Assembly (NCBI GenBank): GCA_020029475.1
Contig: JAIBJG010000005.1
Span: 13,169 to 77,168, forward strand
Length of the DNA stretch: 64,000 bases
Source: Methanobacteriota archaeon
GTDB lineage: Archaea; Thermoplasmatota; Thermoplasmata; RBG-16-68-12
Direction: 5' to 3'
Below the pieces are notes generated by a model. The model was given only the letters and a program-made list of their open reading frames with translations, did not search any database and was not told where the DNA came from. This document shows positions 4,126 to 58,282 of the stretch, one piece after another. Numbering within the stretch: position 1 is the stretch's first letter; every line of letters starts with the position of its first letter. A program made the position numbers and the translations under genes.

Positions 4126-4299
4126 ATGGACAGAGACAGAGGCGGCGGCGGCAGGCGATTCGACCGCGGGCCCAGGGAGATGCACGACGTGGTTTGCTCC
4201 GATTGCGGAAAGCAGACCCAGGTGCCCTTCAAGCCCGACGGGACAAGACCTGTCTACTGCCAAGAGTGCTTCCAGAAGCGGCGCCCGCGGCGGTTCTAA
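4126..4299 (+). CDS. small RGG-rich zinc-ribbon protein (57 aa), CxxC-x18-CxxC
   Basis: ATG at 4126 gives MDRDRGGGGRRFDRGPREMHDVVCSDCGKQTQVPFKPDGTRPVYCQECFQKRRPRRF*. It is absent from the six-frame track (below the length cut-off); high GC3, with a T-rich tract downstream. Confidence 0.5.
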   Translation: MDRDRGGGGRRFDRGPREMHDVVCSDCGKQTQVPFKPDGTRPVYCQECFQKRRPRRF

Positions 4300-4438: not shown

Positions 4439-5170
4439 GTGGACGAGATCGAGGTCGGCCCAGGCGTGTCCGTAACCCGCCACTTCGCCCTCCTGCTCGA
4501 GGACGAGGGCGCGGTCGCGATCAGCGACCTCCACCTCGGGTTCGAGGCGGCCCTCGCGGAGCAGGGGGTGTCGATCCCGCGGTTCCAGCGGCGGGAGATC
4601 CTGGAGCGGCTCGCCCGCCTCCTCGACGCGTACGAGCCCGAGAGGCTGATCATCGCGGGGGACTTCAAGCACGAGTTCTCGAAGAACCTCTCGGACGAGT
4701 GGGTGGAGATCAAGCAGGTCCTGCGGTTCCTCCAGCAGCGGACGGAGCCGATCGTCGTGCGGGGGAACCACGACAACTTCCTCGCGACGATCCTCGGCGA
4801 CCTGAGGATGACCCTCCACGACCGGTACGACCTGGGCGGGTACACGTTCGTCCACGGCCACGAGGAGGTCCAGGCCCTCGGGACGATTGTGATGGGCCAC
4901 GAGCACCCCGCCGTGAAGCTGCGGGATGCCCTGGGCGCCACCGTGAGCGTCCCCGCGTTCCTCGTGGCGGAGCGGGTGATCGTCCTCCCCGCGTTCAGCC
5001 CCCTTGCCCTTGGCGTCAATGTCGCGAGCTATCCGTACCTATCCCCGATCCTCAACGCGATCGACGTCGACGGGGCCCGGGTCATCGGGGTCGACGAGAA
5101 GGGGGGGCTCCTGGACTTCGGTCGGGTCGGGGACTTGCAGGCCGCGGACGCAAGCCTTCTCCTCCGGTGA
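4439..5170 (+). CDS. metallophosphoesterase (calcineurin-like, ICC/SbcD-related archaeal phosphoesterase)
   Basis: ISDLHLG...IIAGDFKHEF...VRGNHDNF...FVHGHEH motifs (D-x-H, GD, GNH(D/E), GH). GTG start. Confidence 0.8.
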   Translation: MDEIEVGPGVSVTRHFALLLEDEGAVAISDLHLGFEAALAEQGVSIPRFQRREILERLARLLDAYEPERLIIAGDFKHEFSKNLSDEWVEIKQVLRFLQQRTEPIVVRGNHDNFLATILGDLRMTLHDRYDLGGYTFVHGHEEVQALGTIVMGHEHPAVKLRDALGATVSVPAFLVAERVIVLPAFSPLALGVNVASYPYLSPILNAIDVDGARVIGVDEKGGLLDFGRVGDLQAADASLLLR

Positions 5171-5274
5171 AGGAGCCTTTCGGTACACATCTGTCCGAGT
5201 CCGCTGTGGCATCGAATCAACGTCGATAACCGCCCACAAGCCATAAAGCGGACGCCGAACGCACAGGCCCTCTG

Positions 5275-11863: not shown

Positions 11864-11935
11864 GCCCGCGTTCGTACAAAGTCGTCACCAGAATCTTCAA
11901 GTGCGCGCCGACCTTCGTCGCGTCCCGGGGTATCC

Positions 11936-28095: not shown

Positions 28096-28359
28096 GTGGC
28101 CACGATCGCCCGAATCCTGAAGCGCGCCGGAGGTCCGTTCATCCTGATGGGGGTCGGGTTCTTCCTGGCATTCGCGGGCCTTGCGGGGGACTACTACCAG
28201 CACGAGATCGCCGGGTTCTCACCCGCCCTCGAGAGCTTCTTCGCGCCCGTCCACGTGATGATCTTCGCTGGGATTCTCGTGGCGGCGCTCGGGTTCCTCT
28301 GGGGACTGCTCCGGGTATCGTTCACGCTTGGACCGGGCCCGAGGGACTGGGCAGACTAG
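28096..28359 (+). CDS. small hypothetical membrane protein (2 TM)
   Basis: 87 aa, ILMGVGFFLAFAGLAG...VHVMIFAGILVAALGFLWGLL. GTG start. Confidence 0.45.
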   Translation: MATIARILKRAGGPFILMGVGFFLAFAGLAGDYYQHEIAGFSPALESFFAPVHVMIFAGILVAALGFLWGLLRVSFTLGPGPRDWAD

Positions 28360-28538
28360 CCCCCGGTCGGGCGCGCCTCCCCGACGCTCCCCTTCTTCGA
28401 CGCGCACGAGCGGCAGCGGTGGACCTTCGCGTGCTCCTCGCGGACCTCGGGAGGCTTCTGGCACCACAGCGGGTACCGCTCCTGCGTCCCGCACACGACG
28501 CATTCGATTGTGAGGGCGTCCGGCCCCGTGGTCCTCAC
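28356..28538 (-). CDS. small Cys-rich zinc-ribbon protein (~60 aa) translationally coupled to the upstream diiron-protein gene
   Basis: VRTTGPDALTIECVVCGTQERYPLWCQKPPEVREEHAKVHRCRSCASKKG... is C-x2-C-x9-C-x15-C-x2-C. The GTG at 28538 overlaps the TGA (28537-28535) of the upstream gene as GTGA. The track's ATG at 28568 lies inside that gene. Confidence 0.4.
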   Translation of the reverse strand: MRTTGPDALTIECVVCGTQERYPLWCQKPPEVREEHAKVHRCRSCASKKGSVGEARPTGG

Positions 28539-33315: not shown

Positions 33316-36084
33316 CTACGATCCGGGACGGAGCCTTCGGCGACGGCGAATGACGAGCCAGGCGACTGCAATCGACCCCAGGCCCGCTGCTGCGAGCCCA
33401 CCCACCAGGAGGAGCATGTCGCCCTCCGCCGGGAACAGGCCCTGGTCAGGCGGCCTGACCTCCTCGCGGTACACCACGAGCAACGATACGGTCGTGTTCG
33501 CGGGATGGTACGGGGACTTCGCCGCCAGGAAGGACACGCGGTACGACTGAGACGCACGGAGGTCGGTCGGCGGCGAGAACAGGATCTGCGCCATCGTCGT
33601 TGCGGTCCCACTGGGGGGCTGCACGGTCGCATTATCCGGCGTGACCCCTGCCGTCACCATAGCATCTCCGACGGTCGTCCCCGTCTCGTCGCGGACTTGG
33701 AGGCGGATCGGGAGGACGCCGCCGGGCTCCGTGAGGTCCCCGGCGGGGACGGAGATGTGAAGACTTAGGAAGGGCACACCGTCCGGGAAAACCGTGATGA
33801 GGATTCCGCGCTGGATCGGTTGCCGCGCGTCGGGATGGTCCGCCGCCACGTCAATCACGATGTAGCGCAACGAGGATACGGCGGGGGCCTCGTACGTGGC
33901 AGAGAACGAGCCGGTCGCGCCCGTCCTGCCGATGACGTTCGCCGCCGAGGTTTCGACGAACCGCCCGCCGTCCTGGGGCAGGATCGTTAGGGTCACCTCG
34001 GCTCCCTGGAGCGCGGTTCGGCGGTCGTCTCGGACGGTCACGTCGATCCGTTGGCGGCCTTGGCTCGGCATCGCGGAGCCGAATTCGACGGCGAGGTTGA
34101 GAGTCCTGAGGCTCGTCACGGGGCGCACCCCGATCCAGGACCAGTAGTTCCAAAGGGACCCGAACTCCGAGGTCCAGTTCACGAACTGGTCCGAACGCGT
34201 CGCCTGGACGACCGTGCGGGAGAACAGGGGTTCCACCGGGTGGTCCTCCATGAAGATTGCCTGGGCCCATCGGATGAGCCGCTGACGTTCCGTCCCGTTC
34301 ATCTCGGAACGCGATTGCTCGACCACGTAGTCGAATGTGGCATCGCAATACCCCGCGTCGTTCGCACCCGCCGCCTGGCCGCAGTGAAACAGGTCAAACA
34401 GATAGTCGGGGTCTGGACCAATGCTCCACCGCTGGGCGGCGAACATGTCGAAGTCCCGGCGCTCGATCCTACCGGAAAGGGCAGAGAACGCTATGGGCTC
34501 CGCGACCACGTTCACCCGAATCGACCGGGCGGCCGTGGCGATGAGGCCTGCAGGAGTTGGCTGTTCGGGGAAGATCGGATAATCCGACTGGGGCGTCAAG
34601 ATCGATATCTGCCGGTCCCCGATGGAAGGGAATTCCCTCCACCCGTCTCCGTCCGCGTCCATCCACCCCGCGTTGTCGAGGATTAGGGAGGCCTGTGAGG
34701 GATCGTACGAGACCAGCGGGAGGGAGGCGTTGTACCAGAACCGATTCACCGGGGAAACGGGGCTGTCGGTGACGATTCCATAGTTCCCCAGGTGGGTTCT
34801 GACCATCGTCTGTTTGTCCGCGAGGCGCGCGAAGGCGGTTCGGAACGGCCGGCCCACGTCGTCGATCTCGCTGTCGACGGGCGGGAACGTGGAGTAACCG
34901 AATGGCTGCCTCCGGAGGTTGAAGCCAATGTACGGGTACCCGAGCTCGGCCCCGGCCCAGACGGTAACCTCGGGCGTGTTCAGCAAGTCGGGGACGAACT
35001 CGGGCGGGATGTTCCACAGGTAGTAGTCGATTTCCCCCGCCTGGAGCGCGAGGACCCCGAGCTGCGTCGTGCGGTGGATCCGGAACTCGATCCCGCCCAC
35101 ATGCGGCGGGTGGACCGAGGTGTTCATCCGAGGGTCGTAGACGAACGCCGGGTTCGAGGGGTCCCGCCCCCAGTAATACGCGTCGTTCCTGTCGATGCGG
35201 GCGAGTGCTCCGGAGATTAACGTCGTGAAGCGGAAGGGGCCCGACCCGATGACGTCGAAATCCGAAGGCTCCCATGCCTCTGCCGCGGCGTAGTTGAACG
35301 GCATGTACGCGGTCTCGTACGTGGGGATTCCTTGCCCTGCCCTGGGGTGCCCCGGGGGGTACACAGCGAGGCCGAAGTCCACGTGTCGTCCGTTCCCCGT
35401 GTCCTCCCAGACGTGTCGCGGAAGCAGCCAGAGATGCCCAAGGGTACGCTCGAAGAACGGCGCGTACGGTACATGGAGTCGGAAGCGAAGCGCGCACCGG
35501 AGGGTGTTCATGCCGGCGAGGCCGGAGGCCGACGACCACTGAACGTCCGTGGGGTTGCACCAGGAGAGGTCGATGTTGACGTGCCGGTCCGACGGGAAGG
35601 AAGCCGCGCTAGGGTCGTCCCACAGAGGGCGCACGTGAACGTTCCAAACTGGGCTCATCGAGGCGAGCTGGAGGGAGAAAAGGACGTCCGTCGCCGTCAT
35701 CTGTGTGCCGTCGTGCCACCGCAGGCCGTTGAAGTCGAAATAGGCGGTCACGTCCGAGCCGTTCGTCCCAGAGGCCTTTTGGAACGCAGCGTATTCGTCC
35801 GCCTCGAAGGATCCATCGCCGTCGTGGTCGGTCCCCTTTAAGACATGCGGCAGCAGGACGCCGATCGGCTCCGAAGTGAGGATCGGATGGGCATAGACGG
35901 GGGCGAGGATGGGTAGCGCCCACGGGTCAGAAACGGAACCGCGAAGGAGGTTTCGTGTGCGCATCTGATCCTGAATCCCAATGGAGACGACGGAGACGGG
36001 TTCCTCACCGGTCGATCCGGGCGCGGTGGCGATCAGCGTCGCTGAGAGAAAGAACGAAACCGCCAGGACCGTCGCGGCTCGCAT
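33316..36084 (-). CDS. ABC-transporter substrate-binding protein, family 5 (peptide/nickel type), with extra C-terminal Ig-like domains and a C-terminal TM anchor; no cognate permease or ATPase nearby
   Basis: Signal peptide MRAATVLAVSFFLSATLIATA. SBP_bac_5 C-terminal signature ...ATFDYVVEQSRSEMNGTERQRLIRWAQAIFMEDHPVEPLF. The ~300-aa C-terminal extension ends LLLVGGLAAAGLGSIAVAWLVIRRRRR. Confidence 0.75.
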   Translation of the reverse strand: MRAATVLAVSFFLSATLIATAPGSTGEEPVSVVSIGIQDQMRTRNLLRGSVSDPWALPILAPVYAHPILTSEPIGVLLPHVLKGTDHDGDGSFEADEYAAFQKASGTNGSDVTAYFDFNGLRWHDGTQMTATDVLFSLQLASMSPVWNVHVRPLWDDPSAASFPSDRHVNIDLSWCNPTDVQWSSASGLAGMNTLRCALRFRLHVPYAPFFERTLGHLWLLPRHVWEDTGNGRHVDFGLAVYPPGHPRAGQGIPTYETAYMPFNYAAAEAWEPSDFDVIGSGPFRFTTLISGALARIDRNDAYYWGRDPSNPAFVYDPRMNTSVHPPHVGGIEFRIHRTTQLGVLALQAGEIDYYLWNIPPEFVPDLLNTPEVTVWAGAELGYPYIGFNLRRQPFGYSTFPPVDSEIDDVGRPFRTAFARLADKQTMVRTHLGNYGIVTDSPVSPVNRFWYNASLPLVSYDPSQASLILDNAGWMDADGDGWREFPSIGDRQISILTPQSDYPIFPEQPTPAGLIATAARSIRVNVVAEPIAFSALSGRIERRDFDMFAAQRWSIGPDPDYLFDLFHCGQAAGANDAGYCDATFDYVVEQSRSEMNGTERQRLIRWAQAIFMEDHPVEPLFSRTVVQATRSDQFVNWTSEFGSLWNYWSWIGVRPVTSLRTLNLAVEFGSAMPSQGRQRIDVTVRDDRRTALQGAEVTLTILPQDGGRFVETSAANVIGRTGATGSFSATYEAPAVSSLRYIVIDVAADHPDARQPIQRGILITVFPDGVPFLSLHISVPAGDLTEPGGVLPIRLQVRDETGTTVGDAMVTAGVTPDNATVQPPSGTATTMAQILFSPPTDLRASQSYRVSFLAAKSPYHPANTTVSLLVVYREEVRPPDQGLFPAEGDMLLLVGGLAAAGLGSIAVAWLVIRRRRRLRPGS

Positions 36085-36154
36085 GACCCTCCGGTCGGCC
36101 CCAAAGGGGCCGTGCGACTTAGGATGATTGGTACGCCCCTTTGTGCCTTCTGGA

Positions 36155-37429
36155 TTACAGGGTCGCCTTGTCGAACATCTCTGGCTTCCCGCCCGGTGGG
36201 CGGGTCGCGTCGATCCCCAGTTTCGCCGTAATCCCGTCGCTTGCGCTCGGATCGATCGAGGAGCCCCGCACTCCTTGGAGGATCACAAGCCCGCGGTCCG
36301 CTTGGAACCTCGTCGCGATCGCCCACTCCACGTCCCGGTCGTCGAACACGTCGATGTCCTCGTCCACGATGACGACCTGTTTCATCGAGGTGTGCGCGCC
36401 GAAGGCCGCCAGGATCGCGTTCTTCGCGTCCCCCGGATGCTGCTTCCGGATTGACACGACGCCGTGGAGCCACGCGCACCCACCCTCCGTCAGCCGCACC
36501 GCTTTCACCTTCGGGACCGCGCGGGACACGGCCTGGTGGATGATCGGCTCCCGCGGCATCCCCATGAACATGAAGTGCTCGTCCAACCCGCCGACGATGA
36601 TGTGGAAAATCGGGTCGTCCCGGTGGTACACGCGGTCCACGACGAGGACGGGCTCCTCCCGCACGCGGTCATACGTCCGCACCGCGTCGACGAAGGGACC
36701 CTCCGCGTGGCGCTCGTTGATCAACCGGCCCTCGAAGACGTACTCCGCGTCCGCGGGGACCGTGAGGCCGTCCTTGATCTTCACGACGTCCACGGGCTGG
36801 CCGAGGGTCCGCCGCTTCAGGGCGGACGCGATCCGCGTCTCATCCACGCCGTACTCCACGGAGGTCCCGCCGCCGATTAGGAGCCAAGGGTCGAGCCCCA
36901 CGCAGATCGCGACCTTCAGCTCCTGGCCCGCCTTCAGCGCCTCCTGGTACATGTGATGGAGGTGGCGGGGGACGATCCGGCACACTCCCCGGTTCGGACC
37001 GAGGACCTGGATGCGATGGAACGAAAGGTTCCGATGCCCCTCCCACTCCGCGACCCACACCCCCGCGGTCACGTACCGTCCCGCGTCCCCGGGGTAGAGC
37101 TTCGGGATCGGACTCTCGAGGAGGTCCACGTCCGTCGTCTCGTTCGCCTGGAACCCCGCCTTCTCAACAGCGTGGAAGTCCTCCGGGTGGGACATCGAGA
37201 GCATCAGGTGCCCGAGGAGCGCGTCCCGGGTCGTGTTCATCGCGGAAGCGACGCGGTCTCTCGTGGACCATAGGTTCCCGACCGCCTCGTGGCCGTCAAG
37301 GTCTGCGAAGTGGACGGGGCTCCGCGGGTGCTTCAGCAGGATGCGCGTGCACTCCAGCTCCCGGCTCGTCCGCTCCTTGATCGTGACGACATCGTCGGAG
37401 AATCTCTCGAGCCACGGACGGACCGCCAT
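36155..37429 (-). CDS. UbiD-family (prFMN-dependent) decarboxylase
   Basis: 424 aa; MAVRPWLERF...GPNRGVCRI...LKVAICVGLDP... matches the UbiD/3-octaprenyl-4-hydroxybenzoate carboxy-lyase fold. Confidence 0.8.
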   Translation of the reverse strand: MAVRPWLERFSDDVVTIKERTSRELECTRILLKHPRSPVHFADLDGHEAVGNLWSTRDRVASAMNTTRDALLGHLMLSMSHPEDFHAVEKAGFQANETTDVDLLESPIPKLYPGDAGRYVTAGVWVAEWEGHRNLSFHRIQVLGPNRGVCRIVPRHLHHMYQEALKAGQELKVAICVGLDPWLLIGGGTSVEYGVDETRIASALKRRTLGQPVDVVKIKDGLTVPADAEYVFEGRLINERHAEGPFVDAVRTYDRVREEPVLVVDRVYHRDDPIFHIIVGGLDEHFMFMGMPREPIIHQAVSRAVPKVKAVRLTEGGCAWLHGVVSIRKQHPGDAKNAILAAFGAHTSMKQVVIVDEDIDVFDDRDVEWAIATRFQADRGLVILQGVRGSSIDPSASDGITAKLGIDATRPPGGKPEMFDKATL

Positions 37430-40643: not shown

Positions 40644-42893
40644 CTACTGGACCATCTGGGTCTCGCCGCAGCTCGGGCACATCACTTCGATCGGCCGCTT
40701 GCTCGTCGTGATCTCGATCGGGGCGCTGCACGCTTTGCACGTGACGGTCATCGGGGCGGGCCCCGGCTGCGCGGACGCGGGCGGTGCGTGCTTCGCCATC
40801 GGAGGCTTCTCTCCGGGCGCCCTCGGGATCACGCCCCCCATCGTCCGTCGCCACATCAGGATTGTGAGGATGAAGAGCAGGGCGACGAAGAGGCCGAGCA
40901 CGACGACGATCGCCGGGATCCCGCCGACGTCCGCCCAGAGCGGGTTCGTCTGTCCAATCGTGACGCTTTCGACCGTGTAGGCGGAGGTGTTCATTTCCTG
41001 TACGGTGACGAACTGGGCCCCCGCGTTCATCCCTCCGGGGACCGTGTACGTGAACTCCCCGCTGGACTGGGTCGTCTGGACGACCTTCCCGGGCGCCCCG
41101 GGCATCGCGACGAGGAACACGAAGTTCGACGGAAGGGCGGTCCGCCCGCGCGGCGTCAGGGAGTAGGTGATCCGCATCGTCTCACCGGGGTTGTACGAGG
41201 GCCGATCAAAGCCGATGGACAGGAGCACCCCGGAGACAAGTAACGCCGTCGAGCTTCCGGACAGGGCGCGGCCCGCCTCCGTCGCGGTGATCCGGAACTG
41301 GTAGGAGCTCGATGCGACCGGCGGGACCTGGTACACCACGCTCGTCCCGGTCGCGGCACCGGACCGGACGAGGATCCCCGAAGTGTCGAAGATCTCGTAG
41401 TAGTACGTCGGGTTCGCCAGGACCGCGGGGTTGCGGGTCAGCGAGTATGTCGCGGTGATCGTGTCCCCGTCGTTGTACTCCGACCGGTCCAGGTTCACGA
41501 CGAGAATCCCGAGCAGCACGGTGAACGTGCGGCTGTCGGACCGTCGGTTCCCCTGCCCGTCGTCCGCGGTGGCCGCGAACAGGATCGGGCCGTCAAACGG
41601 CGTCGGCGTCGTCGGGATCGTGTACGTGTACACGTTCGAGGTCGCGGTGAGGCGGTTCAGGAGGCCGCCGCCGGGGGACGCGTCCCGGGCCTCGTACGTG
41701 AACGTAAAGGGACCCGAGCTCCCGCTCACGCCCACGGTCATGCGCACCGTGTCCCCGCTCAGATACTGGCTCTTGTCGAAACTGAGGACGATCGTCATCC
41801 CCGCCCTCGAGTTCACGACGAACGTGTCCGTCGCGAAGGCGGTGACCGCGTTGTTCGCGACCCCGTCCGCGCGCACGAGGAAGGACGTGCCGTCCAGGAT
41901 GGACGTGTTCAGCTGAAACACGTGTCGGAGGTTCCCGTGGCTGTCCGTGAGGAGGTTCAGGACCCCGTAGTTCGGGACCATCTGGCCCGTGGACTGATCC
42001 GTCACCGCGATGTCGACCTCCACGCCCGCGGCGCCGGGGTTCCCGGGGTTCGGCGGGAAGTCCGTCACCTTCGCGCTCACGTCGACGGTCACGATGCCTC
42101 CGGGCTCGTACGTCGCCGCGGCGACGTTCACGATCATCCGGAGCCCATCGATCGGCGCGTTCGTCGTGGAGAACACGAACCGCTCGGCATTCGATCGCGT
42201 GTCGTTGAACCATGCCTGCGCGAGGATGAAGCGGTTCGTGGGGATCGTCCCGAGGAGCTGGAAGACGCGCTGCCCGCTCGAACCCGTGAACACGTGAGGA
42301 TTCGGTGAGATGAGCGCGTTCCCGGTCGGGATGTCGTTCACCCAGAGCTGCCCATCCCCGTTCGGGGCGAGGCTCCCGTCCCGGATCAGGTTCACCGACC
42401 ACAGGATCGTGACCGTGTCCCCGGGCAGGTACCGGCCCCGGTCCGTCTCGAGGCTCATCGTCCACGTGCGGATGGAGAACCGGAACAAGTCGATTGTCGG
42501 GCCCGCCCCGTTCTCAATGTACAGGGCGTCGTGGACTTCGATGAAGTACCAGTCCCCGTCCGGCATCGGGGTCAGGTCGTTCACGTCGGGGATGTTGAAG
42601 TTCAGGGTGATCGAGGTCTGCGGGTTCGGGATCGTCATGTTGTTGAACTGGTTCCCGCTGTAGTCCGTGCGGGTGGCCCCGTCGTCCCAGACGACCACGA
42701 CGTCGTACGTCCGGGGGTCGCCGCCCGCGATGGAGATCGTGAACCGCATCAGTTCCCCGGGCACGTAGTTCCCGGGGGAATACCTCGGGGGATCCACGGC
42801 GATCTGGGCGATCCCTCGGGCGGGTGCGGCCGCCATCAAGGCTCCCGTGAGCATTCCGAACGCGAGCAGGGCGACGACGAGCTTCGTCTTCAT
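40644..42893 (-). CDS. surface protein with ~6 tandem Ig-like domains, one TM helix and a cytoplasmic C-terminal zinc-ribbon tail
   Basis: Start taken at MKTKLVVALLAFGMLTGALMAAAPARG (signal peptide; GGAGGT lies 7 nt upstream). Repeated ~100-aa units each contain Y.PG(D/E)T(V/I/M)... (RYLPGDTVTIL, QYLSGDTVRMT, EYNDGDTITAT, SYNPGETMRIT). TM is IPAIVVVLGLFVALLFILTILMWRR. Last 30 aa: TVTCKACSAPIEITTSKRPIEVMCPSCGETQMVQ (CxxC-x17-CxxC). Confidence 0.7.
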   Translation of the reverse strand: MKTKLVVALLAFGMLTGALMAAAPARGIAQIAVDPPRYSPGNYVPGELMRFTISIAGGDPRTYDVVVVWDDGATRTDYSGNQFNNMTIPNPQTSITLNFNIPDVNDLTPMPDGDWYFIEVHDALYIENGAGPTIDLFRFSIRTWTMSLETDRGRYLPGDTVTILWSVNLIRDGSLAPNGDGQLWVNDIPTGNALISPNPHVFTGSSGQRVFQLLGTIPTNRFILAQAWFNDTRSNAERFVFSTTNAPIDGLRMIVNVAAATYEPGGIVTVDVSAKVTDFPPNPGNPGAAGVEVDIAVTDQSTGQMVPNYGVLNLLTDSHGNLRHVFQLNTSILDGTSFLVRADGVANNAVTAFATDTFVVNSRAGMTIVLSFDKSQYLSGDTVRMTVGVSGSSGPFTFTYEARDASPGGGLLNRLTATSNVYTYTIPTTPTPFDGPILFAATADDGQGNRRSDSRTFTVLLGILVVNLDRSEYNDGDTITATYSLTRNPAVLANPTYYYEIFDTSGILVRSGAATGTSVVYQVPPVASSSYQFRITATEAGRALSGSSTALLVSGVLLSIGFDRPSYNPGETMRITYSLTPRGRTALPSNFVFLVAMPGAPGKVVQTTQSSGEFTYTVPGGMNAGAQFVTVQEMNTSAYTVESVTIGQTNPLWADVGGIPAIVVVLGLFVALLFILTILMWRRTMGGVIPRAPGEKPPMAKHAPPASAQPGPAPMTVTCKACSAPIEITTSKRPIEVMCPSCGETQMVQ

Positions 42894-42974
42894 AGGGCTA
42901 CCTCCAGAATGAGAAGGGGGGGTCGGGTTCATCCCATCCGGCTGCGATTTCTCGCAGTCAGGTCCACATGGGCA

Positions 42975-43012
42975 TGAGGTACTTAATAATTGTTGTCCGC
43001 AAATAAAACTCT
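42975..43012 (-). promoter_or_regulatory. AT-rich island (minus strand ...gttttatttgcggacaacaattattaag...) upstream of the surface-protein gene; candidate TATA/BRE
   Basis: Sole AT-rich patch in the 142-nt spacer between the STAND-regulator stop and the surface-protein start. Confidence 0.3.
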
Positions 43013-43035
43013 ACCGGGTTGACAAACACGGAACG

Positions 43036-45501
43036 TCAAGGGGGCCGGGCCGCGACGCGCCCGCGGGGGAGGGACCCTCGGAGCCCCTCGAGGTCCCGTC
43101 GCGCCATGTCCGCCTCCTCCGGGCGCCCCGACCGCTCGTAGAACCGCGCGAGCTCGTCGATCCGTTCGATCAGGCTCGCCACGTTCCCGAGCCCGCGGAT
43201 CCGTTCGACCCCGGCGCGGAGCCGCTCCTCCGCGGGCCCGGGTCGCCCCTGGGCCGCGAGGACCTTCCCCTCGTTCGTGAGGACCGTGGACTCGAGGAGG
43301 GGGTCCGCGAACCCATCCGAGACCCGCCGGGCGCGGGCGAGGGAGGCCTCCGCGTCCTCTGGGCGGCCCGCGTCCAGGTGCGCGTCCGCCGCGTTCGCGA
43401 GGGCGTATCCCGCGGCCCGGAAGTCCCCGGCCTCCTCCGCGGCCCGCGCGCTCTCCTCGAACAGGGCCGCGGCCTCGGCAGGGCGGCCCATCCGGACCCA
43501 GGCGATCGCGAGGTTCGACCGAATCGCGGCCCCTTCCCGGGGACCCGCGGCGGGGTCCTCCAGGAGGCCCTCGAGCTCCGTCGCGGCATCCTGGACCTCC
43601 CCGCGAAGGAGCCGGATCACGGCCCCGTCAAGGCGCGCGGAGACCCCCTCCCTCCGCTCCCCCGCCCTCTCGAGAAGGGGGATCGCGCGGCCGAGCTCCT
43701 CCGTCGCCGCGTCGTAGTCCCCGAGCTTCCGGTGGACGACGGCGAGGATCCGGCGGGCCTTCCCTTCGATCCCCGGCAGAGAGGACCGCTCGGCGGCGGT
43801 GATCGCCTCGCGCAGGACCCTCTGGGCCTCCGCGAGCGCATTCCGCCGGCTCTCGATCCGCCCCAGGAGCAACAGGGCTTCTGCCCGCCTCGGGTGTCCG
43901 GGTCCCTCGACGATGCCCCGGAGGAGGGCGCGGGACTCGTCCCCGCGGCCGAGCCGGTCCATGCCCTCCGCGAGGAGGAGCCGGGCTGCCGAGGTTCGGG
44001 GAAGACCGAGGAGGAGGCGTGTGAGCTCCCCGACCCGGGGAGAGTCGAGGAGCTCGCCCCGGGCCGCAACGAGGATATCCCGGGCCCGCCGCGGCCGGCC
44101 CGACGCCGTCGCATGCCACGCCGCCTCGATCGGGTCCCCCTGCCGTAGAGCCGCCCTCGACGCCGCCGCGTGGGCCCGCCGGAGGACGGGGGCGGAGGTC
44201 CTCGGGAGGAGGACGTCCTTCACGAGGTCATGGAGCGCGATCCCCCCGGGCCCCCGGGCGAGAAGTCCCCGGCCCGCGAGTCCCCGGACCCCGGTGGCGG
44301 AGACGCCGAGGTCTGCGGGTCGCCCGATGGGCGCGCGAAGGACGGCGAGGGAGACCGCGGCCCGCTCGAGGGAGGGGTCGAGCCCCTCTAGGATCGCGTC
44401 CTCGAGGAGGCGTTCGGCCCCCGCGGGGCCCGCGGGCGGGTCCACGGCGGCGAGGACGTGGAGGGCGATCGGGTGGCCCCGTCCCGCCGCGACGATCCGA
44501 TCGATCCGTTCCGGGTCCCCTGGGAGAAGGCGGGACGCGAGGGCCCTCGACGCCGCGGGGTCCAGGCCTCCGAGGACGACCTCCACGGGGCCGTCCCGGC
44601 GTCCGCCCGCGAGGACGTCCGGCCGTTCCCGGGCCGTGACGAGGAGCTTCCCGCTCCCGCCCGCGTCCACGGCGAGCCGGAGGAACCCCGCCGCCTCCAT
44701 GGACGCGTGGACGTCGTCCGCGACGACGAGGACCCCGGACAGGTCCTCCCGGAGGATCGCGGAGAGGCCGTCCCCGTCGAACCCGCCGGACGAGAGGTAA
44801 CTCCGGAGGCGGGGACGCTCGATCCGGTGGAGGAAGTCCCCGAGGGCGGACGCGAACGTGCGGGCGTCGTCGAACCCGTACACCTTCCGGTACCACACGG
44901 GGCCTGGCCAATCCGAGGCCGCCCGGGCCGCGAGGGCGGTCTTCCCGATCCCGGGCACCCCGAGGACGAGGGCGAGGGGGGCCGGGGAGGCGAGCCAGGC
45001 CCGGAGGGCCGCGAGTTCCTCCTCTCGCCCCACGAACGGCTCCGCGGTCGGGAGGTCCCGCTCCGGGCCCGGCCGGGGGCGGGGCTCGACGACGTCCCCG
45101 CCGAGGACGAGCTGGGTCGCCTCCGGCTCCCGCACCCCGCGGGCCTTCAAGGACTCGATCGCCTCCGCGCCGGGGACCTCCCGCCGGCCCGCGCCATCCG
45201 CGAGGAGGACGGGCTTCGCGCGTGCGTACTCCCGGAGGGCCCGGGCCGCGCCCGCCCCGGACGGGGTCAGGAAGTACACCTTCCGGCGGGAGCGGGCCCC
45301 CGCGACGTGGGCCATCCGCTCTTCGGCCTTCGAGGACGCCTTGAGCCGCTTCAGCTCGAGGGCCGCGTGGGCGCGGCTGATCCCGAGCGCGTCCGCGATC
45401 CCGTCCTGGGTCGTCTCCCGCGGGCACTCGAACGCGTCCGAATACCGCAGGTACCAGGATAGGTGGACGAGAATGCGCTCCCCCACGGTGACCGGTGACA
45501 C
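43036..45501 (-). CDS. STAND-class NTPase regulator: N-terminal winged-HTH, P-loop NTPase (NB-ARC/AAA-like), C-terminal TPR repeats
   Basis: 821 aa. wHTH ...DGIADALGISRAHAALELKRL.... Walker A LVLGVPGIGKTALAARA, Walker B-like LVVADDVH. Long Ala/Leu/Arg-rich TPR-like C-terminal half (AEALLLLGRIES..., AGYALANAADAHLDAGRPEDAE...). Confidence 0.75.
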   Translation of the reverse strand: MSPVTVGERILVHLSWYLRYSDAFECPRETTQDGIADALGISRAHAALELKRLKASSKAEERMAHVAGARSRRKVYFLTPSGAGAARALREYARAKPVLLADGAGRREVPGAEAIESLKARGVREPEATQLVLGGDVVEPRPRPGPERDLPTAEPFVGREEELAALRAWLASPAPLALVLGVPGIGKTALAARAASDWPGPVWYRKVYGFDDARTFASALGDFLHRIERPRLRSYLSSGGFDGDGLSAILREDLSGVLVVADDVHASMEAAGFLRLAVDAGGSGKLLVTARERPDVLAGGRRDGPVEVVLGGLDPAASRALASRLLPGDPERIDRIVAAGRGHPIALHVLAAVDPPAGPAGAERLLEDAILEGLDPSLERAAVSLAVLRAPIGRPADLGVSATGVRGLAGRGLLARGPGGIALHDLVKDVLLPRTSAPVLRRAHAAASRAALRQGDPIEAAWHATASGRPRRARDILVAARGELLDSPRVGELTRLLLGLPRTSAARLLLAEGMDRLGRGDESRALLRGIVEGPGHPRRAEALLLLGRIESRRNALAEAQRVLREAITAAERSSLPGIEGKARRILAVVHRKLGDYDAATEELGRAIPLLERAGERREGVSARLDGAVIRLLRGEVQDAATELEGLLEDPAAGPREGAAIRSNLAIAWVRMGRPAEAAALFEESARAAEEAGDFRAAGYALANAADAHLDAGRPEDAEASLARARRVSDGFADPLLESTVLTNEGKVLAAQGRPGPAEERLRAGVERIRGLGNVASLIERIDELARFYERSGRPEEADMARRDLEGLRGSLPRGRVAARPP

Positions 45502-48064: not shown

Positions 48065-49006
48065 GTGCCGTTGGAGGAGGGCGCCGCCTCCGTCCTCAGG
48101 ACGAGCGCGGGCCTCAAGGTGGGCGAGAAGGTCCTCATCGTCGCGGACCCCGAGCGGATGGGAGTCGGTCGCGCGTTCTTCTACGCGGCCGCGGCCCTCG
48201 GCTGCGACCCCGTCCTCTCCCTGATCCGCACCCGGGAGGCGCCCGGACGGGAGCCCCCGGACCTCCTGTCCGCCGCGATGCTCGATGCGGACGTCGTCCT
48301 CCTCGCGACCGTGCACTCGATGACCCACACCCACGCGCGGCGGGCCGCGAACCGCGCGGGCGCCCGCGTCGTCTCGATGCCCGGGGCCTCCGAGGAAGAC
48401 CTCGAGGGCGGGGCCCTCACCGCGGACCACGGGGTCCTCGTGCAGACGATGCGCCGCCTCCAGCGGCGGCTCCGCGGCGCGGACGAGGTCCACATCGTGA
48501 CCCCGGCGGGCACGGATGTCACCCTGAGCACTCGGGGCCGGGATTGGAATTTCTCGGACACCGGGGTCGCGACCCGGAAGGGCGACGTCACGACCCTCCC
48601 GGCCGGGGAGATCTTCGTCTCCCCCGTCGAGGGCACCGCGGAGGGCCGCCTCGTCGCGGACGCGTTCTTCCACGAGTCCCTCCACACCCCCGCCACGGTC
48701 CTCCTGAAGGAGGGGCACGCGACGAAGGTCACCGGGGCGGAGGCCGCCGTCCTCGAGATGAACCGGGGCGGGAAGGAGGGACGGAACGTCGCGAAGCTCG
48801 GTGTCGGCCTGAACCCGAGGGCCCGGGCCGCCGCGTCCCTCCCGGAGGCAGAGAAGGCGCTTGGGGCCGTCCACGTCGTCTTCGGGGACAGCGTGCCGTA
48901 CGGCGGGAAGGTCGCGTGCGGGGTCCGGGTCGACGCGATCCTCACTGGGGCGACCGTGGAGGTGGACGACGCGCCGATCGTGGAGAAGGGGAAGCTCCCG
49001 CCCTAG
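48065..49006 (+). CDS. aminopeptidase, peptidase M29 (AmpS/aminopeptidase T)-like
   Basis: 313 aa. The C-terminal half GEIFVSPVEGTAEGRLVADAFF...LGVGLNPRA...AVHVVFGDSVPYGGKVACGVRVDAIL resembles M29 signature regions (GEIFT.P, GIGTNP, HIAlG...GG.N.S..H.D). Family call is tentative. Confidence 0.6.
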   Translation: MPLEEGAASVLRTSAGLKVGEKVLIVADPERMGVGRAFFYAAAALGCDPVLSLIRTREAPGREPPDLLSAAMLDADVVLLATVHSMTHTHARRAANRAGARVVSMPGASEEDLEGGALTADHGVLVQTMRRLQRRLRGADEVHIVTPAGTDVTLSTRGRDWNFSDTGVATRKGDVTTLPAGEIFVSPVEGTAEGRLVADAFFHESLHTPATVLLKEGHATKVTGAEAAVLEMNRGGKEGRNVAKLGVGLNPRARAAASLPEAEKALGAVHVVFGDSVPYGGKVACGVRVDAILTGATVEVDDAPIVEKGKLPP

Positions 49007-51192
49007 CGGTGGTGGAGGACGGAGTAGTAACGGTCCTGCTTGAACGTCTTCTCGAGGCCGCCGACGATCGGGAGCTGGGTCCCGCACTTCTTGCACTTGT
49101 TGTGCTTGTCGAGGTACCAGCCCGTGATGTCGAACTGGTACCGCCGGATCGCGATCGCGCCGCACCCCGGGCAGTACGTGTGCTCGAGCTTGTGCCCGCC
49201 GACGTTCCCGATGTACACGTACTTCAGGCCCGCCGCCGTCGCGACGTCGCAGTGCTTCTCGAGGGTCTCCACGGGGGTCCACGGGAACTCGTTCATCTTG
49301 TAATCCGGGTGGAACCGGAGGAAGTGGATCGGGGTGTCGGGGCCGAGCTCGTCGTACACGAACTTCGAGAGCTTCTTCGCCGCCTCGAGGTCGTCCCCGA
49401 CTTGGGGCACGATGAGGTCCGTGATCTCGATGTGGGTCGCCTTCGTGTCCCGGATCCTCTGGATCGTGTCGAAGATCGGGTCCGCGTTCGGGATCCCGAT
49501 GTACCGCTGGACGAACTTTGTCTCCCCGGACCCCTTGAAGTCCACCGTGATGCAGTCCAGGAACTTCGGCATCTCCGCGACCGCCTCCGGGGTGTCGTAG
49601 CCGTTCGAGACAAAGATGTTCATGAGCCCCGCCTTCCGGGCCGCCATCCCGATGTCCCGGGCGAACTCCATGAAGATCGTGGGCTGGTTGTACGTGTACG
49701 CGAGGCCCTGGCACCCCTGCTCCAGGGTCATGTTGACGACGTCCTGGGGCTCGACCTCGATCCCTTCTACCTTCCGTCTCTGACTAATGTCGAAGTTCTG
49801 GCAGTACCTGCAGTTGTGGACGACGACTCCGCTCGCGACGTAGTTGTGGTTAGGGAGGCACTCGAAGCTGAAGACCGCCTCGAGCCGGTCTGTGCGCGAG
49901 GCTGAATGAATGGGCAGCCACATTTTCTTGTTCTTACGAAGGACCGGGGCAATCGCCTCGTCGATGAGGTCCCTAACCGCAGCTTCGTGACGGAAGAGAT
50001 CTCGGCTCCAAATTCGGACGACCCGCCACCCATTCGCCTCGAGCGTGGCATCGCGGACGCGATCCGACTCCCGTACTTTTTCGGACTTGACGTGCCAGAA
50101 ACCATCGATCTCTAGGTCGACCTTCATTTCCGGCAGGGCTGCGTCCGCAACATAGTACTTCCGAGAATTTGCAAGTCGATGGTCAAGCTCGATACGGTAC
50201 TCTTTCTCATACGAAATTCCCATGGAGTCCAGGACGCTGTAGAGCCGCTCCTCTCCACCTGATGGATGGCGGTGACGCCACAGTTCTAGCCGTTCGAGAT
50301 TCCGATGCCATCCGTGGGTGGGGTCCGCTAGATACCGTGCACGGCTCGTCGCAAGGGCGCGTCTCGCGATCTCTGGGTTCTTCATTGGATTTCGCGATTG
50401 CATTCGCTCGGACCGAGCGAGTCTTTCCGCCTCGGAATACTCCGCGTCCTTCGTGTAACAGAGTCCACGATGGCGGTTCCACGCTGCGAGCCCAGTAACC
50501 GTTTCTCCGCAGACGCCGCAAGTGAAGTCCGCCGAGGCGATGGTCTCTGCCCGACCGGAACGCCAGGAAGAGGTGTTTTGGTACCAGACTTTGAGGATCT
50601 CATCACCCGCGGCAAGATTCTGAACGAGCGTCCAACCGCGCCGTGTGAGGACGGGGTGTTCCGCAGTTGCCTCAAGAATCCCCCCGCCGCGGGTCCCAGT
50701 TCTGACCCTCCAGATCCAGTCCAACCGCCGCCCCACATGGGTCACCACATTCGGCAGGATCTGGAAGCCTGCATCCACGTTGTACGACCACACGCGGTCT
50801 CCAGGGCCGACCGTCTCTACAGGCTTGGTCGTCCCGTCCGCCAGCAGAATCGGCGTCCCAGCGGGATGGCAAAGCCAGTTACACCCGGTCGTCGCCACGC
50901 TGAAGATTTTCGAGCCAGGTCGATAATGCATCACCGGTTTCTTCTCGATCGGGTCGACGTGACCCGTGATTACGCGCCCGTAAACGTAGAGCCAGAGCTT
51001 CCCGTCGTGGACGCCCCGTACACCGCAGAGGCCGACCTGGCCTTCTCCGATCTTGCAGTATCGCGCGCACGCCGTGCACACAATCTTGTTCGTGCCCTCG
51101 ACGGGTTTCCACAGCTCTCCGACCTTACCCGTCGCATGGCCCGGGGGCTCTCGGACGTCCACGGGCTCGATCAAGTCCGCCTTCGTGACCAT
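49003..51192 (-). CDS. AmmeMemoRadiSam-system-type radical SAM enzyme (AmrS/PflA-like) interrupted by an intein
   Basis: Exteins: N-terminal Cys cluster KIVCTACARYCKIGEGQVGLCGVR; radical-SAM motif split as ...TTGCNWL|[intein]|CRYCQNFDIS; C-terminal zinc ribbon HTYCPGCGAIA...HNKCKKCGTQL. The exteins total ~376 aa, the normal length for this family. Confidence 0.85.
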   Translation of the reverse strand: MVTKADLIEPVDVREPPGHATGKVGELWKPVEGTNKIVCTACARYCKIGEGQVGLCGVRGVHDGKLWLYVYGRVITGHVDPIEKKPVMHYRPGSKIFSVATTGCNWLCHPAGTPILLADGTTKPVETVGPGDRVWSYNVDAGFQILPNVVTHVGRRLDWIWRVRTGTRGGGILEATAEHPVLTRRGWTLVQNLAAGDEILKVWYQNTSSWRSGRAETIASADFTCGVCGETVTGLAAWNRHRGLCYTKDAEYSEAERLARSERMQSRNPMKNPEIARRALATSRARYLADPTHGWHRNLERLELWRHRHPSGGEERLYSVLDSMGISYEKEYRIELDHRLANSRKYYVADAALPEMKVDLEIDGFWHVKSEKVRESDRVRDATLEANGWRVVRIWSRDLFRHEAAVRDLIDEAIAPVLRKNKKMWLPIHSASRTDRLEAVFSFECLPNHNYVASGVVVHNCRYCQNFDISQRRKVEGIEVEPQDVVNMTLEQGCQGLAYTYNQPTIFMEFARDIGMAARKAGLMNIFVSNGYDTPEAVAEMPKFLDCITVDFKGSGETKFVQRYIGIPNADPIFDTIQRIRDTKATHIEITDLIVPQVGDDLEAAKKLSKFVYDELGPDTPIHFLRFHPDYKMNEFPWTPVETLEKHCDVATAAGLKYVYIGNVGGHKLEHTYCPGCGAIAIRRYQFDITGWYLDKHNKCKKCGTQLPIVGGLEKTFKQDRYYSVLHHR
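49813..50871 (-). mobile_element. intein (353 aa): Hint domain plus zinc-finger plus Vsr/DUF559-like PD-(D/E)xK endonuclease module
   Basis: Block A CHPAGTPILLADGTTKPVETVGPGDRV; block B TAEHPVLT; blocks F/G FSFECLPNHNYVASGVVVHN followed by +1 Cys. Insert contains CGVCGETVTGLAAWNRHRGLC and ...SRNPMKNPE...KVDLEIDGFWHVKSEKVRESDRVRDATLEANGWRVVRIWSRDLF (Vsr-like FWHxH / RD...GW..VR.W). Confidence 0.8.
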
Positions 51193-51242
51193 CGGCTAAG
51201 GACTAAACCGTCGCGCGTCTTAAACACCTTTCGGGCCCAATT

Positions 51243-58071: not shown

Positions 58072-58282
58072 CGCATCCGCTCCCGGAAGGGCGTAGCCTC
58101 TCGCCCCGCCAAGAACGCTTCGGTCGGAACCCGAATGACCCCCGAAGTCCGAAGGTCAACTTTCCGGAGGACATTATCAAGAATGTTTGAGAACGTCTTT
58201 ATATCAGCCCCGGTAAACCTACTCCGCAAACTCGTCCTGTCATGCGATTGACTCGATCGCGGAGGGAGGAGGGGGTACTTCG

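Follow-up and report, generated by a model that had tools for sequence, protein, structure and literature searches.

Two adjacent genes on the reverse strand of the 64,000-nucleotide stretch of archaeal DNA analysed here (the window) encode a STAND transcription factor and, downstream of it, a surface protein whose predicted cytoplasmic tail ends in a zinc ribbon. We read them, at about an even chance, as a two-gene module specific to one lineage, a clade of Thermoplasmata. In it the regulator would act on the surface-protein gene beside it, and the tail would dock onto a conserved cytoplasmic partner. The regulatory part of this reading draws on several observations: in 39 of the 41 species-level Thermoplasmata loci that could be assessed, the regulator gene is the immediate upstream neighbor of the surface-protein gene and shares its strand; the winged-HTH (wHTH) domain of the regulator is kept in place after the NTPase and TPR parts are lost; and the intergenic region holds a conserved element. 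Counting against it, the motif in the 5' untranslated region (UTR) persists in two loci that have no adjacent regulator (L004 and L050), and relatives of the wHTH domain also occur elsewhere, without the surface protein. In the mechanism we propose, the STAND factor, with its ADP/ATP-switched NOD, would bind the conserved intergenic promoter region through its nearly invariant recognition helix and would then switch transcription of the surface-protein gene upon a ligand sensed by the TPR domain. The surface protein may be adhesin-like, receptor-like or part of an envelope scaffold, as its domain type, its topology and the fast evolution of its ectodomain suggest. Given the extreme conservation of the zinc ribbon, the partner to which it would dock should itself be highly conserved.

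It is poorly understood how information crosses the membrane of wall-less or S-layer-only archaea, and what the STAND transcription factors of archaea sense and what they control. The locus offers a concrete, widely conserved pair in soil Thermoplasmata, a group described as one that can be locally abundant (PMC9038741). If the link amounts merely to a regulator beside its target gene, it would be a useful annotation and not a discovery.

Table 1. Features of the regulator gene, the surface-protein gene and the region between them, in window coordinates.
Feature	Position	Strand	Basis or detail
STAND transcription factor gene, 821 aa	43036..45501	(-)	ORF; GTG start; GGAGG Shine-Dalgarno
TTTATA box of the regulator gene	~45545	(-)	read from sequence
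N-terminal winged-HTH DNA-binding domain, residues 1-95	45217..45501	(-)	AF2 model, Foldseek
Accessory subdomain, residues 96-140 (beta-hairpin + two helices)	45082..45216	(-)	modelled secondary structure, alignment
NOD (NTPase core)	44182..45054	(-)	motifs, 6mfv NBD-HD match; TAR, GxP and LHD motifs inside
Walker A	44938-44961	(-)	GVPGIGKT, residue 181
Walker B	44713-44727	(-)	VVADDVH at 259; VLVVADD 257-263
Arm + TPR sensor region	43039..44181	(-)	TPR_12, TPR_MalT, AfsR likeness
T-rich GTTTTATTT	43001-43009	(-)	oligo-T; may terminate the regulator gene
Promoter region of the surface-protein gene	42980..43009	(-)	sequence; conserved across loci
GGAC adjoining BRE	42995-42998	(-)	sequence
TATA-like ATTATTAAGTA	42980-42990	(-)	sequence
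Conserved 5'-UTR element	42930..42962	(-)	alignment of loci
Hairpin CCTGACTGCGA-gaaa-TCGCAGCCGG	42938-42962	(-)	part of 5'-UTR element
Invariant GGATGGGATG, after and overlapping the hairpin	42930-42939	(-)	alignment
Surface-protein gene, 749 aa + stop	40644..42893	(-)	ORF; GGAGG Shine-Dalgarno 42901-42905
Signal peptide MKTKLVVALLAFGMLTGALMAAAPARG	42813..42893	(-)	hydrophobic N terminus conserved in alignment; N-terminal helix, then low-confidence segment in model
Ectodomain, six macroglobulin-like (MG/Ig-like) beta-sandwich domains, no cysteine	40947..42809	(-)	AF2, Foldseek, Pfam
Single TM helix, then WRR (positive-inside)	40842..40919	(-)	model helix 662-685, hydrophobic segment, alignment
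Proline-rich disordered cytoplasmic linker	40758..40841	(-)	pLDDT < 50, residues 686-713; 47% mean identity
C-terminal C4 zinc ribbon, CKAC-x16-CPSC	40647..40751	(-)	regex match; four short strands in model

Judged by its sequence, the regulator is a STAND transcription factor of the PH0952/MalT type, with a winged HTH, an NTPase core and a TPR sensor. The earlier note on this DNA had described an open reading frame of this size with a winged HTH, Walker A and Walker B motifs and a TPR C terminus, and the open reading frame, the motifs, the Pfam matches and the AF2 model agree on all of it. The closest solved structure was 6mfv (E 5.4e-17 over residues 150 to 350, the NBD-HD region), that of PH0952, itself a predicted transcription factor with an ArsR-like N-terminal effector, NOD, arm and TPR sensor (PMC6468293). 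When the domains were checked against HMMs, as the note had suggested, the TPR families of the regulator (TPR_12 at 59.1 bits for a cut-off of 30.1, together with TPR_10, TPR_2 and TPR_19) and A2M_BRD in the surface protein exceeded their cut-offs; AAA_16 fell just below (31.7 bits for a cut-off of 32.6), and NACHT reached only E 0.048. TPR_MalT spans residues 540 to 762, and the C-terminal TPR region resembles AfsR. Additional motifs are TAR at residue 289, GHPIAL at 340 and LHD at 423, the latter two being candidates for the GxP and MHD-like motifs of a putative STAND-type HD-WHD region. Among 23 orthologues there is no variation at G181, G184, G186, K187, D262, D263, R291, G342 or P344 and almost none at H424, the histidine that would contact ADP.

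The likeness to the PH0952/MalT clade extends to the order of wHTH effector, NOD (NBD and putative HD-WHD), arm and TPR sensor, to a length of about 750 to 820 aa, and to the Walker A and hhhhDD Walker B motifs; GxP and LHD motifs are present too. Unlike that clade, the regulator belongs to a Thermoplasmata-specific orthologous group, an additional subdomain of 45 residues comes after its wHTH, and its family loses the TPR and NOD parts stepwise in some lineages, leaving wHTH-NTPase proteins of about 535 aa or wHTH-only proteins of about 200 aa. The wHTH stays in place throughout this loss, and even the shortest forms keep the accessory subdomain (tblastn, residues 2 to 139 in L002, L012 and L021). 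An AF2 model of the N-terminal 145 aa (pLDDT 92) has an HTH with a beta-hairpin wing, and Foldseek matched the domain to MarR, MepR, MntR, DtxR and IdeR (probability 1.0, E ~3e-3). The wHTH is the best-conserved domain of the regulator, at 71% mean identity relative to 47 to 53% for the remaining domains, and its recognition helix barely varies across the family. PADLOC matched neither the regulator nor the surface protein to any defence system.

For the surface protein, alignment with 21 homologues and a GGAGG 7 nt upstream place the start at ATG 42893; the first ATG would give 762 aa. The earlier note had spoken of a 750-aa protein with a signal peptide, Ig-like repeats and one TM helix. Its layout stands, with six beta-sandwich repeats, and the length becomes 749 aa from the supported start. 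In the model (pLDDT 88) a signal-peptide helix leads into the six domains, which are followed by one TM helix, a disordered linker and finally a ribbon of four strands. From sequence and model we predict a type-I single-pass membrane protein, N-out and C-in: the signal peptide, the single TM helix and the WRR that follows put the tail in the cytoplasm and not outside, where the note had said it would speak against its reading. The gene is single-copy and kept across the clade. We found 57 homologues, and three tail-less ones were removed from the 56-sequence alignment before the search for related loci. A literature search retrieved no description of the family.

In Foldseek searches the ectodomain matched the MG arrays of C3/C4/C5, TEP1, a bacterial A2M (SaA2M) and CD109 (E 1e-17 to 5e-21), with whole-chain TM-scores of only 0.2 to 0.3, and Pfam A2M_BRD scored 42.8 bits (cut-off, 22.7) over three stretches. 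The surface protein shares with A2M, complement C3-C5, TEP and CD109 an array of MG-type domains, six of them in its own case, but it is half their size or less, lacks the thioester domain, CxEQ, bait region, CUB domain and any ectodomain cysteine, and has as its anchor a C-terminal TM helix, beyond which lies a cytoplasmic zinc ribbon. Because the ectodomain is free of cysteine and only six beta-sandwich domains precede the TM helix, we ruled out membership in the alpha-2-macroglobulin/thioester-containing proteins, there being no CxEQ, bait region or CUB/RBD domains. Archaeal S-layer stalk and surface glycoproteins offer another comparison: the signal peptide, the repeated Ig-like domains, the C-terminal TM anchor, an acidic (pI 4.6), Thr-rich ectodomain and a single-copy, clade-wide gene are common to both, whereas the surface protein has only four N-glycosylation sequons and a 65-residue cytoplasmic tail with a zinc ribbon. 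Archaeal C-terminal TM anchors usually end in a short basic tail or undergo archaeosortase processing, and we know of no description of a tail of this length with an invariant zinc ribbon among archaeal envelope anchors.

The end of the tail is modelled as a C4 zinc ribbon, with two CxxC knuckles on predicted beta-hairpins (strand pLDDT ~80 to 86). Its four cysteines, the only ones in the protein, are invariant in two alignments. A cytoplasmic tail of about 60 residues ending in CxxC-x17-CxxC had been reported; the C-terminal CxxC pair is confirmed, the predicted location agrees, and the figures are corrected to 65 aa (residues 685 to 749) and CxxC-x16-CxxC. No other part of the protein is nearly so constrained as the ribbon, which has a mean pairwise identity of 83% compared to 42% for the ectodomain, and the core TSKRPIEVMCPxCG recurs in nearly all loci, with few substitutions, and those conservative. 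The ribbon stays near constant while the ectodomain diverges to 23 to 40% identity, acquires or sheds domains, or can no longer be recognised, a contrast that points to an important cytoplasmic contact; from sequence, the constraint fits a binding module. Neither the shortened forms of the regulator nor the lack of an adjacent one (L004, L006/L023 and L050) goes with any change in the core, and no domain of the regulator is as conserved as the ribbon.

A ribbon profile search matched almost only the C termini of 700- to 890-aa proteins. Against Pfam, the tail brought no family to threshold and ribbon families only below it; with the 43-aa tail as query, a word-indexed search gave just two 35-aa fragments and was of no further help. 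The best sequence matches of the ribbon were weak (E at least 0.025), to ribosomal, RNA polymerase and HVO_2753-type zinc ribbons. The resemblance once proposed to the reading frames at 4126-4299 and 28356-28538 comes down to the CxxC knuckles and is generic (BLASTP, 16 bits), and the former is a member of another Pfam family, zf_Tbcl_2 (E 3e-21).

The adjacency count given above bears out the conservation of the gene pair, which the earlier note had made its proposal depend on. The pair sits in a conserved block that reads radical-SAM/intein, NicX, Roadblock, PAP2, HhH-GPD, HAD, regulator, surface protein, aminotransferase, GluRS. The aminotransferase, convergent and unrelated, is about as faithfully adjacent to the surface-protein gene as the regulator is, and since the whole block is syntenic and this neighbor equally constant, the adjacency of the regulator is not specific. 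In the three lineages with no regulator beside it, the surface protein keeps its aminotransferase neighbor. The pair survives changes in the upstream flank: HAD is absent in L036, L042, L046, L049 and L052, and in L037 all upstream markers are absent with the pair intact. All related loci are archaeal, the nearest being those of Ca. Angelarchaeales-type MAGs from soil and sediment.

The two genes had been described as separated by a 103-nt AT-rich spacer. That length counts from the first ATG; because translation of the surface protein starts at ATG 42893, the spacer is 142 nt. It is relatively AT-rich, with a GC content of 0.50 to 0.52 compared to ~0.67 to 0.70 locally. Both genes come with a TATA box and a Shine-Dalgarno sequence of their own. 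As read in the DNA, the surface-protein gene has its own TATA promoter and a 5' UTR in which a conserved hairpin precedes GGGAUG(G/A), an order (hairpin, then GGGATG(G/A)) that is conserved. Using nhmmer, we found the element once per locus and only there, with a single window match at 43009-42924 (E 1.4e-14). The hairpin stem is 79% paired, seven pairs change on both sides, G-U pairs occur, and none of 500 shuffles reached the observed score. An Rfam search with the 5'-UTR element gave no family match, and we consider the element a candidate new archaeal cis-regulatory RNA. Intergenic conservation extends well beyond the minimal TATA box. In the largest clade this box is flanked by GTCnGAC and GGAC motifs; conservation of the GTCnGAC sites does not extend to the clade of the window itself, and the GGAC may be just the BRE. 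L006 carries GGGAGG at the position of the motif, suggesting an ordinary Shine-Dalgarno-like role.

One rival is that the genes have no functional link, their order being inherited in a slowly rearranging core region. The targets of the STAND factor would then be other genes, and the surface protein would be a constitutive part of the envelope. This is possible and on the whole unlikely. It would accommodate a conserved ten-gene block that includes functionally unrelated housekeeping genes, the independent TATA box and Shine-Dalgarno sequence of each gene, and the three lineages without an adjoining regulator, but not so readily a pair that outlasts HAD loss and the changes in L037, a wHTH retained in place through two rounds of domain loss, or intergenic conservation of the extent described. 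We also consider it unlikely that the pair works as the earlier note proposed, as a transmembrane sensor and its regulator. In that case the ectodomain would sense an external cue and the membrane-tethered ribbon would bind the STAND factor directly, sequestering or inducing it, so that transcription follows the state of the envelope. The conserved adjacency and the nearly invariant, predicted cytoplasmic tail would suit such a device, as would the fact that TPR sensors commonly bind peptides or proteins. It would leave unexplained why the ribbon is unchanged where the regulator lacks its TPR, lacks NOD and TPR, or is not adjacent; no regulator domain equals the ribbon in conservation, the promoters are separate and synteny reaches well beyond the pair. 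The ribbon is too invariant for a co-variation signal to be extracted.

The analogy to anti-sigma factors drawn for this device fails on the defining motif and on topology. ZAS factors (such as RsrA, RslA and ChrR) have an N-terminal HxxxCxxC helical domain and bind ECF sigma factors. The surface protein resembles them, and other single-pass regulators whose genes adjoin those of their transcription factors, in having a cytoplasmic zinc-binding module, one TM helix, an extracytoplasmic domain and a gene adjoining that of a transcription factor; it differs in its C-terminal C4 ribbon, reversed topology and separate promoters. Its neighbor is a STAND wHTH regulator and not an ECF sigma factor, the host is an archaeon without sigma factors, and no anti-sigma Pfam family was among the matches of the surface protein or its tail. 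A precedent nearer to the regulator lies in STAND transcription factors held inactive by partner proteins, one of them membrane-associated (PMC10427625; PMC6468293). MalT is under such negative control by MalK, MalY and Aes, one of them at the membrane (PMC10427625); these partners are enzymes or an ABC ATPase and not a zinc ribbon. That the locus holds a wholly new signalling device, with the MG ectodomain coupled via the ribbon to the STAND factor and a new cis-regulatory 5'-UTR hairpin-GGGAUGG besides, seems to us improbable; if true, it would be an archaeal functional analogue of anti-sigma/sigma or MalK-MalT control. Least probable by far is that the ribbon binds nucleic acid or the ribosome, for example the GGGAUG(G/A)-hairpin of its own mRNA, in autoregulation or membrane-localised translation. 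Ribbon and UTR motif are both almost invariant and travel together, also in L004 and L050, and the ribosomal, polymerase and HVO_2753-type ribbons are its best matches, but these lie far below significance and the GGGAGG of L006 favours the ordinary role noted above. To our knowledge, a ribbon that binds a UTR element of its own mRNA has no precedent.

Other features of the 5' UTR were considered and set aside. An outer helix around the hairpin, CCCAT-ATGGG, is unsupported (52% paired, no double changes). In the window, GGAUGGGA could pair with UCUCAUUC just before the Shine-Dalgarno sequence (z = -1.75), which we took as chance because the pairing is absent in L003, L007 and L008. The GGGATG motif resembles GGGGA(T/G)GAGG, the MalT box of E. 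coli, a likeness we put down to chance, since the HTH of MalT is of the LuxR type and unrelated. The ATG inside GGGATG was rejected as a start codon, being in frame in some loci and out of frame in others and thus not conserved; in L008 it opens a 10-codon open reading frame.

The window, with a GC content of 63 to 75% and Thermoplasmata MAGs as its closest relatives, contains on its minus strand both of the genes proposed in the earlier note, one for a regulator and one for a surface protein. The regulator bears the Walker A and Walker B-like motifs that had been read in it (GVPGIGKT at residue 181; VVADD at 259 to 263), along with TAR (289), GHPIAL (340), and LHD (423); among 23 orthologues, G181, G184, G186, K187, D262, D263, R291, G342, and P344 are invariant and H424 is nearly so. 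Its N-terminal winged helix-turn-helix (wHTH) was recovered as well, residues 1 to 145 giving a confident model (pLDDT 92) in which a winged HTH is followed by a small beta-hairpin/two-helix subdomain and the fold resembles that of MarR, MepR, MntR, and DtxR regulators. Pfam found TPR_12 (59 bits) and TPR_MalT in the C terminus that had looked TPR-like, and AAA_16 slightly below its cutoff at 31.7 bits. Among solved structures, the best match is the archaeal STAND protein PH0952 (6mfv; E = 5e-17), which its authors present as a predicted transcription factor comprising an ArsR-like effector at the N terminus, an NTPase core (NOD), an arm, and a TPR sensor (PMC6468293). The regulator is a new member of the PH0952/MalT-type STAND transcription factors.

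Features of the regulator and surface-protein genes and the region between them
Feature	Coordinates	Strand or location	Description
Surface-protein ORF	40644-42932 from first ATG; supported start 42893	-	749 aa
Regulator ORF	43036-45501	-	821 aa; GTG start with GGAGG and TTTATA box upstream
Promoter architecture	42980-43009; also in L010-L049	upstream of surface-protein gene	conserved
UTR element	42930-42962	-	hairpin plus invariant GGGATG(G/A); same position in L001-L053

For the surface protein we preferred the downstream start because of the homologue alignment and a GGAGG 7 nt upstream of it. An AlphaFold model built from a 56-sequence alignment (pLDDT 88) contains the signal peptide, the roughly six Ig-like repeats, and the one TM helix that had been claimed, arranged as a signal-peptide helix, six beta-sandwich domains, a single TM helix (662 to 685, model numbering), a disordered linker, and a four-strand zinc ribbon. 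Foldseek matched the model to the macroglobulin (MG)-domain arrays of complement C3/C4/C5, TEP1, bacterial alpha-2-macroglobulin, and CD109 (E down to 5e-21), and Pfam A2M_BRD was above threshold. The surface protein has no thioester domain; MG domain type is the sole feature that it has in common with alpha-2-macroglobulins, and we rejected its membership in that family for lack of the defining thioester and bait features. It has no cysteines besides those four in the ribbon (CKAC-x16-CPSC). Nearly all of the 57 homologues found are 730 to 770 aa long, and none is named. Ectodomain architecture varies: many soil MAGs (L028-L034, L036, L038-L042, L046, and L049) have a form of ~420 to 440 aa with three MG domains, and a 783-aa form (L052 and L053) has an ectodomain unrecognizable by tblastn and keeps the TM helix and tail.

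The ribbon is under extreme constraint. Among 51 tail-bearing sequences, mean pairwise identity was 83% in the ribbon, 47% in the linker, and 42% in both the TM helix and the ectodomain, and the ribbon core TSKRPIEVMCPxCG is identical in nearly all loci, with rare conservative substitutions (K to R, for example). In the three most distant homologues (23 to 27% identity), the TM helix is present and the ribbon is not. When 1.84 billion representative proteins were searched with a ribbon profile (E below 1e-10), 67 clusters matched, nearly all at the extreme C terminus of 700- to 890-aa proteins or their fragments; judged by this distribution, the ribbon therefore characterizes the surface-protein family and is not a widely shuffled module. 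The tail had been likened to two small zinc-ribbon ORFs at 4126-4299 and 28356-28538, a likeness that proved unspecific. The former (plus strand) encodes a free-standing 57-aa zinc-finger protein of the CxxC-x17-CxxC 'VPFKPDGTRPVYC' type, identified as Pfam zf_Tbcl_2 (E = 3e-21) and unrelated to the tail except for its cysteine knuckles. Nor does the proposed analogy with zinc anti-sigma factors hold, as their defining motif, topology, and partner are all missing from the surface protein.

Scanning tail-derived patterns against one genome per GTDB species yielded 53 loci, 52 of them from MAGs titled Thermoplasmata, Methanomassiliicoccales, Thermoplasmatota, Methanobacteriota, or Euryarchaeota. 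The exception, L057 (DASWCJ010000152.1), a 1.8-kb contig assigned to an Anaeromyxobacter bin, holds the archaeal tail-coding end of a surface-protein gene and a convergent aminotransferase; it probably comes from Thermoplasmata and was mis-binned. Leaving out 12 loci broken inside the surface-protein gene, we assessed 41. The gene pair is conserved among these relatives, so the first outcome that the earlier note named as refuting its idea did not occur: in 32, an ORF hit by an HMM built on the N-terminal domain of the regulator lies directly upstream on the same strand, exactly one per locus, and 7 more have the C-terminal part of a regulator reaching a contig end or masked run. The regulator is absent upstream of the surface-protein gene in the other two (L023 and L050), as it is from the metagenomic locus L004; in the L006/L023 lineage, a tRNA-Leu(CAA) gene (7717-7801) takes its place. 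The regulator family has undergone stepwise domain loss, from wHTH-NOD-TPR (~820 to 860 aa, most loci) to wHTH-NOD (~535 aa; L027, L037, and L044) to the wHTH and its subdomain only (~200 aa; L002, L012, and L021), and the regulator gene has stayed upstream of the surface-protein gene throughout. Relatives of the wHTH (43 to 44% identity) also occur at 5001-6279 in both L060 and L061, where a 185- to 237-aa wHTH gene and then a separate 187- to 258-aa TPR gene are flanked by tRNA-deacylase and PheRS genes and lack a surface-protein neighbor. They resemble the regulator in a split or NOD-less form.

Most of the new information came from the intergenic region. The 103-nt AT-rich spacer described earlier has that length when measured from the first ATG; from the supported start it is 142 nt, and its GC content is 0.50 to 0.52. 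Shared among clades is a TATA-like box (aTTAAGTA or TTATATA) with cGGAC(a/c)AAA in front of it. In the largest clade, GTCGGAC lies upstream of the TATA box and GTCAGACA immediately downstream, with ~33 nt from GTCGGAC to a second site, GTCAGAC, which abuts the box downstream; the wHTH might use these as operators. In the window's own clade, a conserved upstream GATTTTAT(C/T) stands in their place. Each gene has its own TATA box and Shine-Dalgarno (SD) sequence and a T-rich run follows the regulator stop codon, so these signals make separate transcription of the two genes likelier.

About 25 nt beyond the TATA region lies a GC-rich hairpin, with an invariant GGGATG(G/A) 3 to 8 nt past it; both are likewise kept in the different clades. 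An nhmmer profile of the intergenic element gave one match per locus, always before the surface-protein gene, and a single match in the 64-kb window (43009-42924; E = 1.4e-14). The hairpin sequence varies between clades and its pairing is retained: 79% of the stem is paired, both members of seven pairs have changed, there are G-U pairs, loops span 4 to 13 nt, and none of 500 shuffles reached the covariation score. Such pairing and covariation are more in keeping with a stem in RNA than with a DNA palindrome bound by protein. GGGATGG precedes the start codon by ~6 nt in many lineages, the window's clade has a canonical GGAGG and ATG ~40 nt beyond it, and the L006/L023 lineage has GGGAGG at its position. 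The motif may be an SD-like or regulatory RNA element, and with the hairpin, which matched no Rfam family, it may represent a novel cis-regulatory RNA of archaea or an atypical Shine-Dalgarno-like element.

The analysis shows the domain composition and topology, conservation throughout the family, the constraint on the ribbon, the adjacency, and the conserved promoter and UTR element. We infer that the STAND factor regulates its downstream neighbor, the surface-protein gene, on the usual reasoning that a regulator gene adjoins its target and because the wHTH is retained at this site through domain loss and the motifs flanking the TATA box are conserved. We give about an even chance to a scheme in which the regulator would control transcription of the adjacent gene and the ribbon would bind some conserved cytoplasmic partner. 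The idea that the ribbon signals directly to the STAND regulator, as first suggested, has a precedent in MalT, a STAND transcription factor for which regulation by partner proteins is established (PMC10427625). It is nevertheless unlikely, since the ribbon is equally invariant where the regulator has no TPR sensor, has no NTPase at all, or is not adjacent; the regulator domains fall far below the ribbon's conservation (wHTH, 71%; others, 47 to 53%); and wHTH relatives exist without a surface protein.

We also consider it rather improbable that the two genes reflect conserved synteny with no functional link. Their adjacency is not specific, the entire block being syntenic (radical-SAM with intein, NicX, Roadblock/LC7, PAP2, HhH-GPD, HAD, regulator, surface protein, [ankyrin], aminotransferase, and GluRS), and the convergent aminotransferase is as constant a neighbor as the regulator; the pair outlasts changes in the flanks, several loci lacking HAD and L037 lacking any upstream marker. 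For the ribbon itself, searches of PDB and Pfam returned only sub-threshold, generic zinc-ribbon matches, and a role as an RNA- or ribosome-binding module seems very improbable.

A transcription factor beside a single-pass envelope protein is a known arrangement, of which this pair is a variant. We found no description in the searchable literature of a protein combining a macroglobulin array, TM helix, and zinc ribbon, or of the gene pair, and PADLOC gave no match. The two conserved features that stand out in it are the ribbon and the UTR element. Several further large proteins encoded in the window probably belong to the envelope as well, namely FG-GAP/Big_9 (1506 aa; 5230-9750), BNR (816 aa; 11864-14314), an SBP_bac_5 fusion (988 aa; 33316-36282), and SpaA-like (835 aa; 58217-60724), none with a zinc-ribbon tail. 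In one clade (L001, 10290-10949; L005, 10340-11008), a gene for a ~220-aa ankyrin-repeat protein lies between the surface-protein and aminotransferase genes, on the strand of the former. An intein with a homing-endonuclease-like insert (Intein_splicing, DUF559, MTES_1575) interrupts the radical-SAM gene (49003-51195, minus strand), and it recurs at the corresponding position in the related loci L001, L002, L003, and L005.
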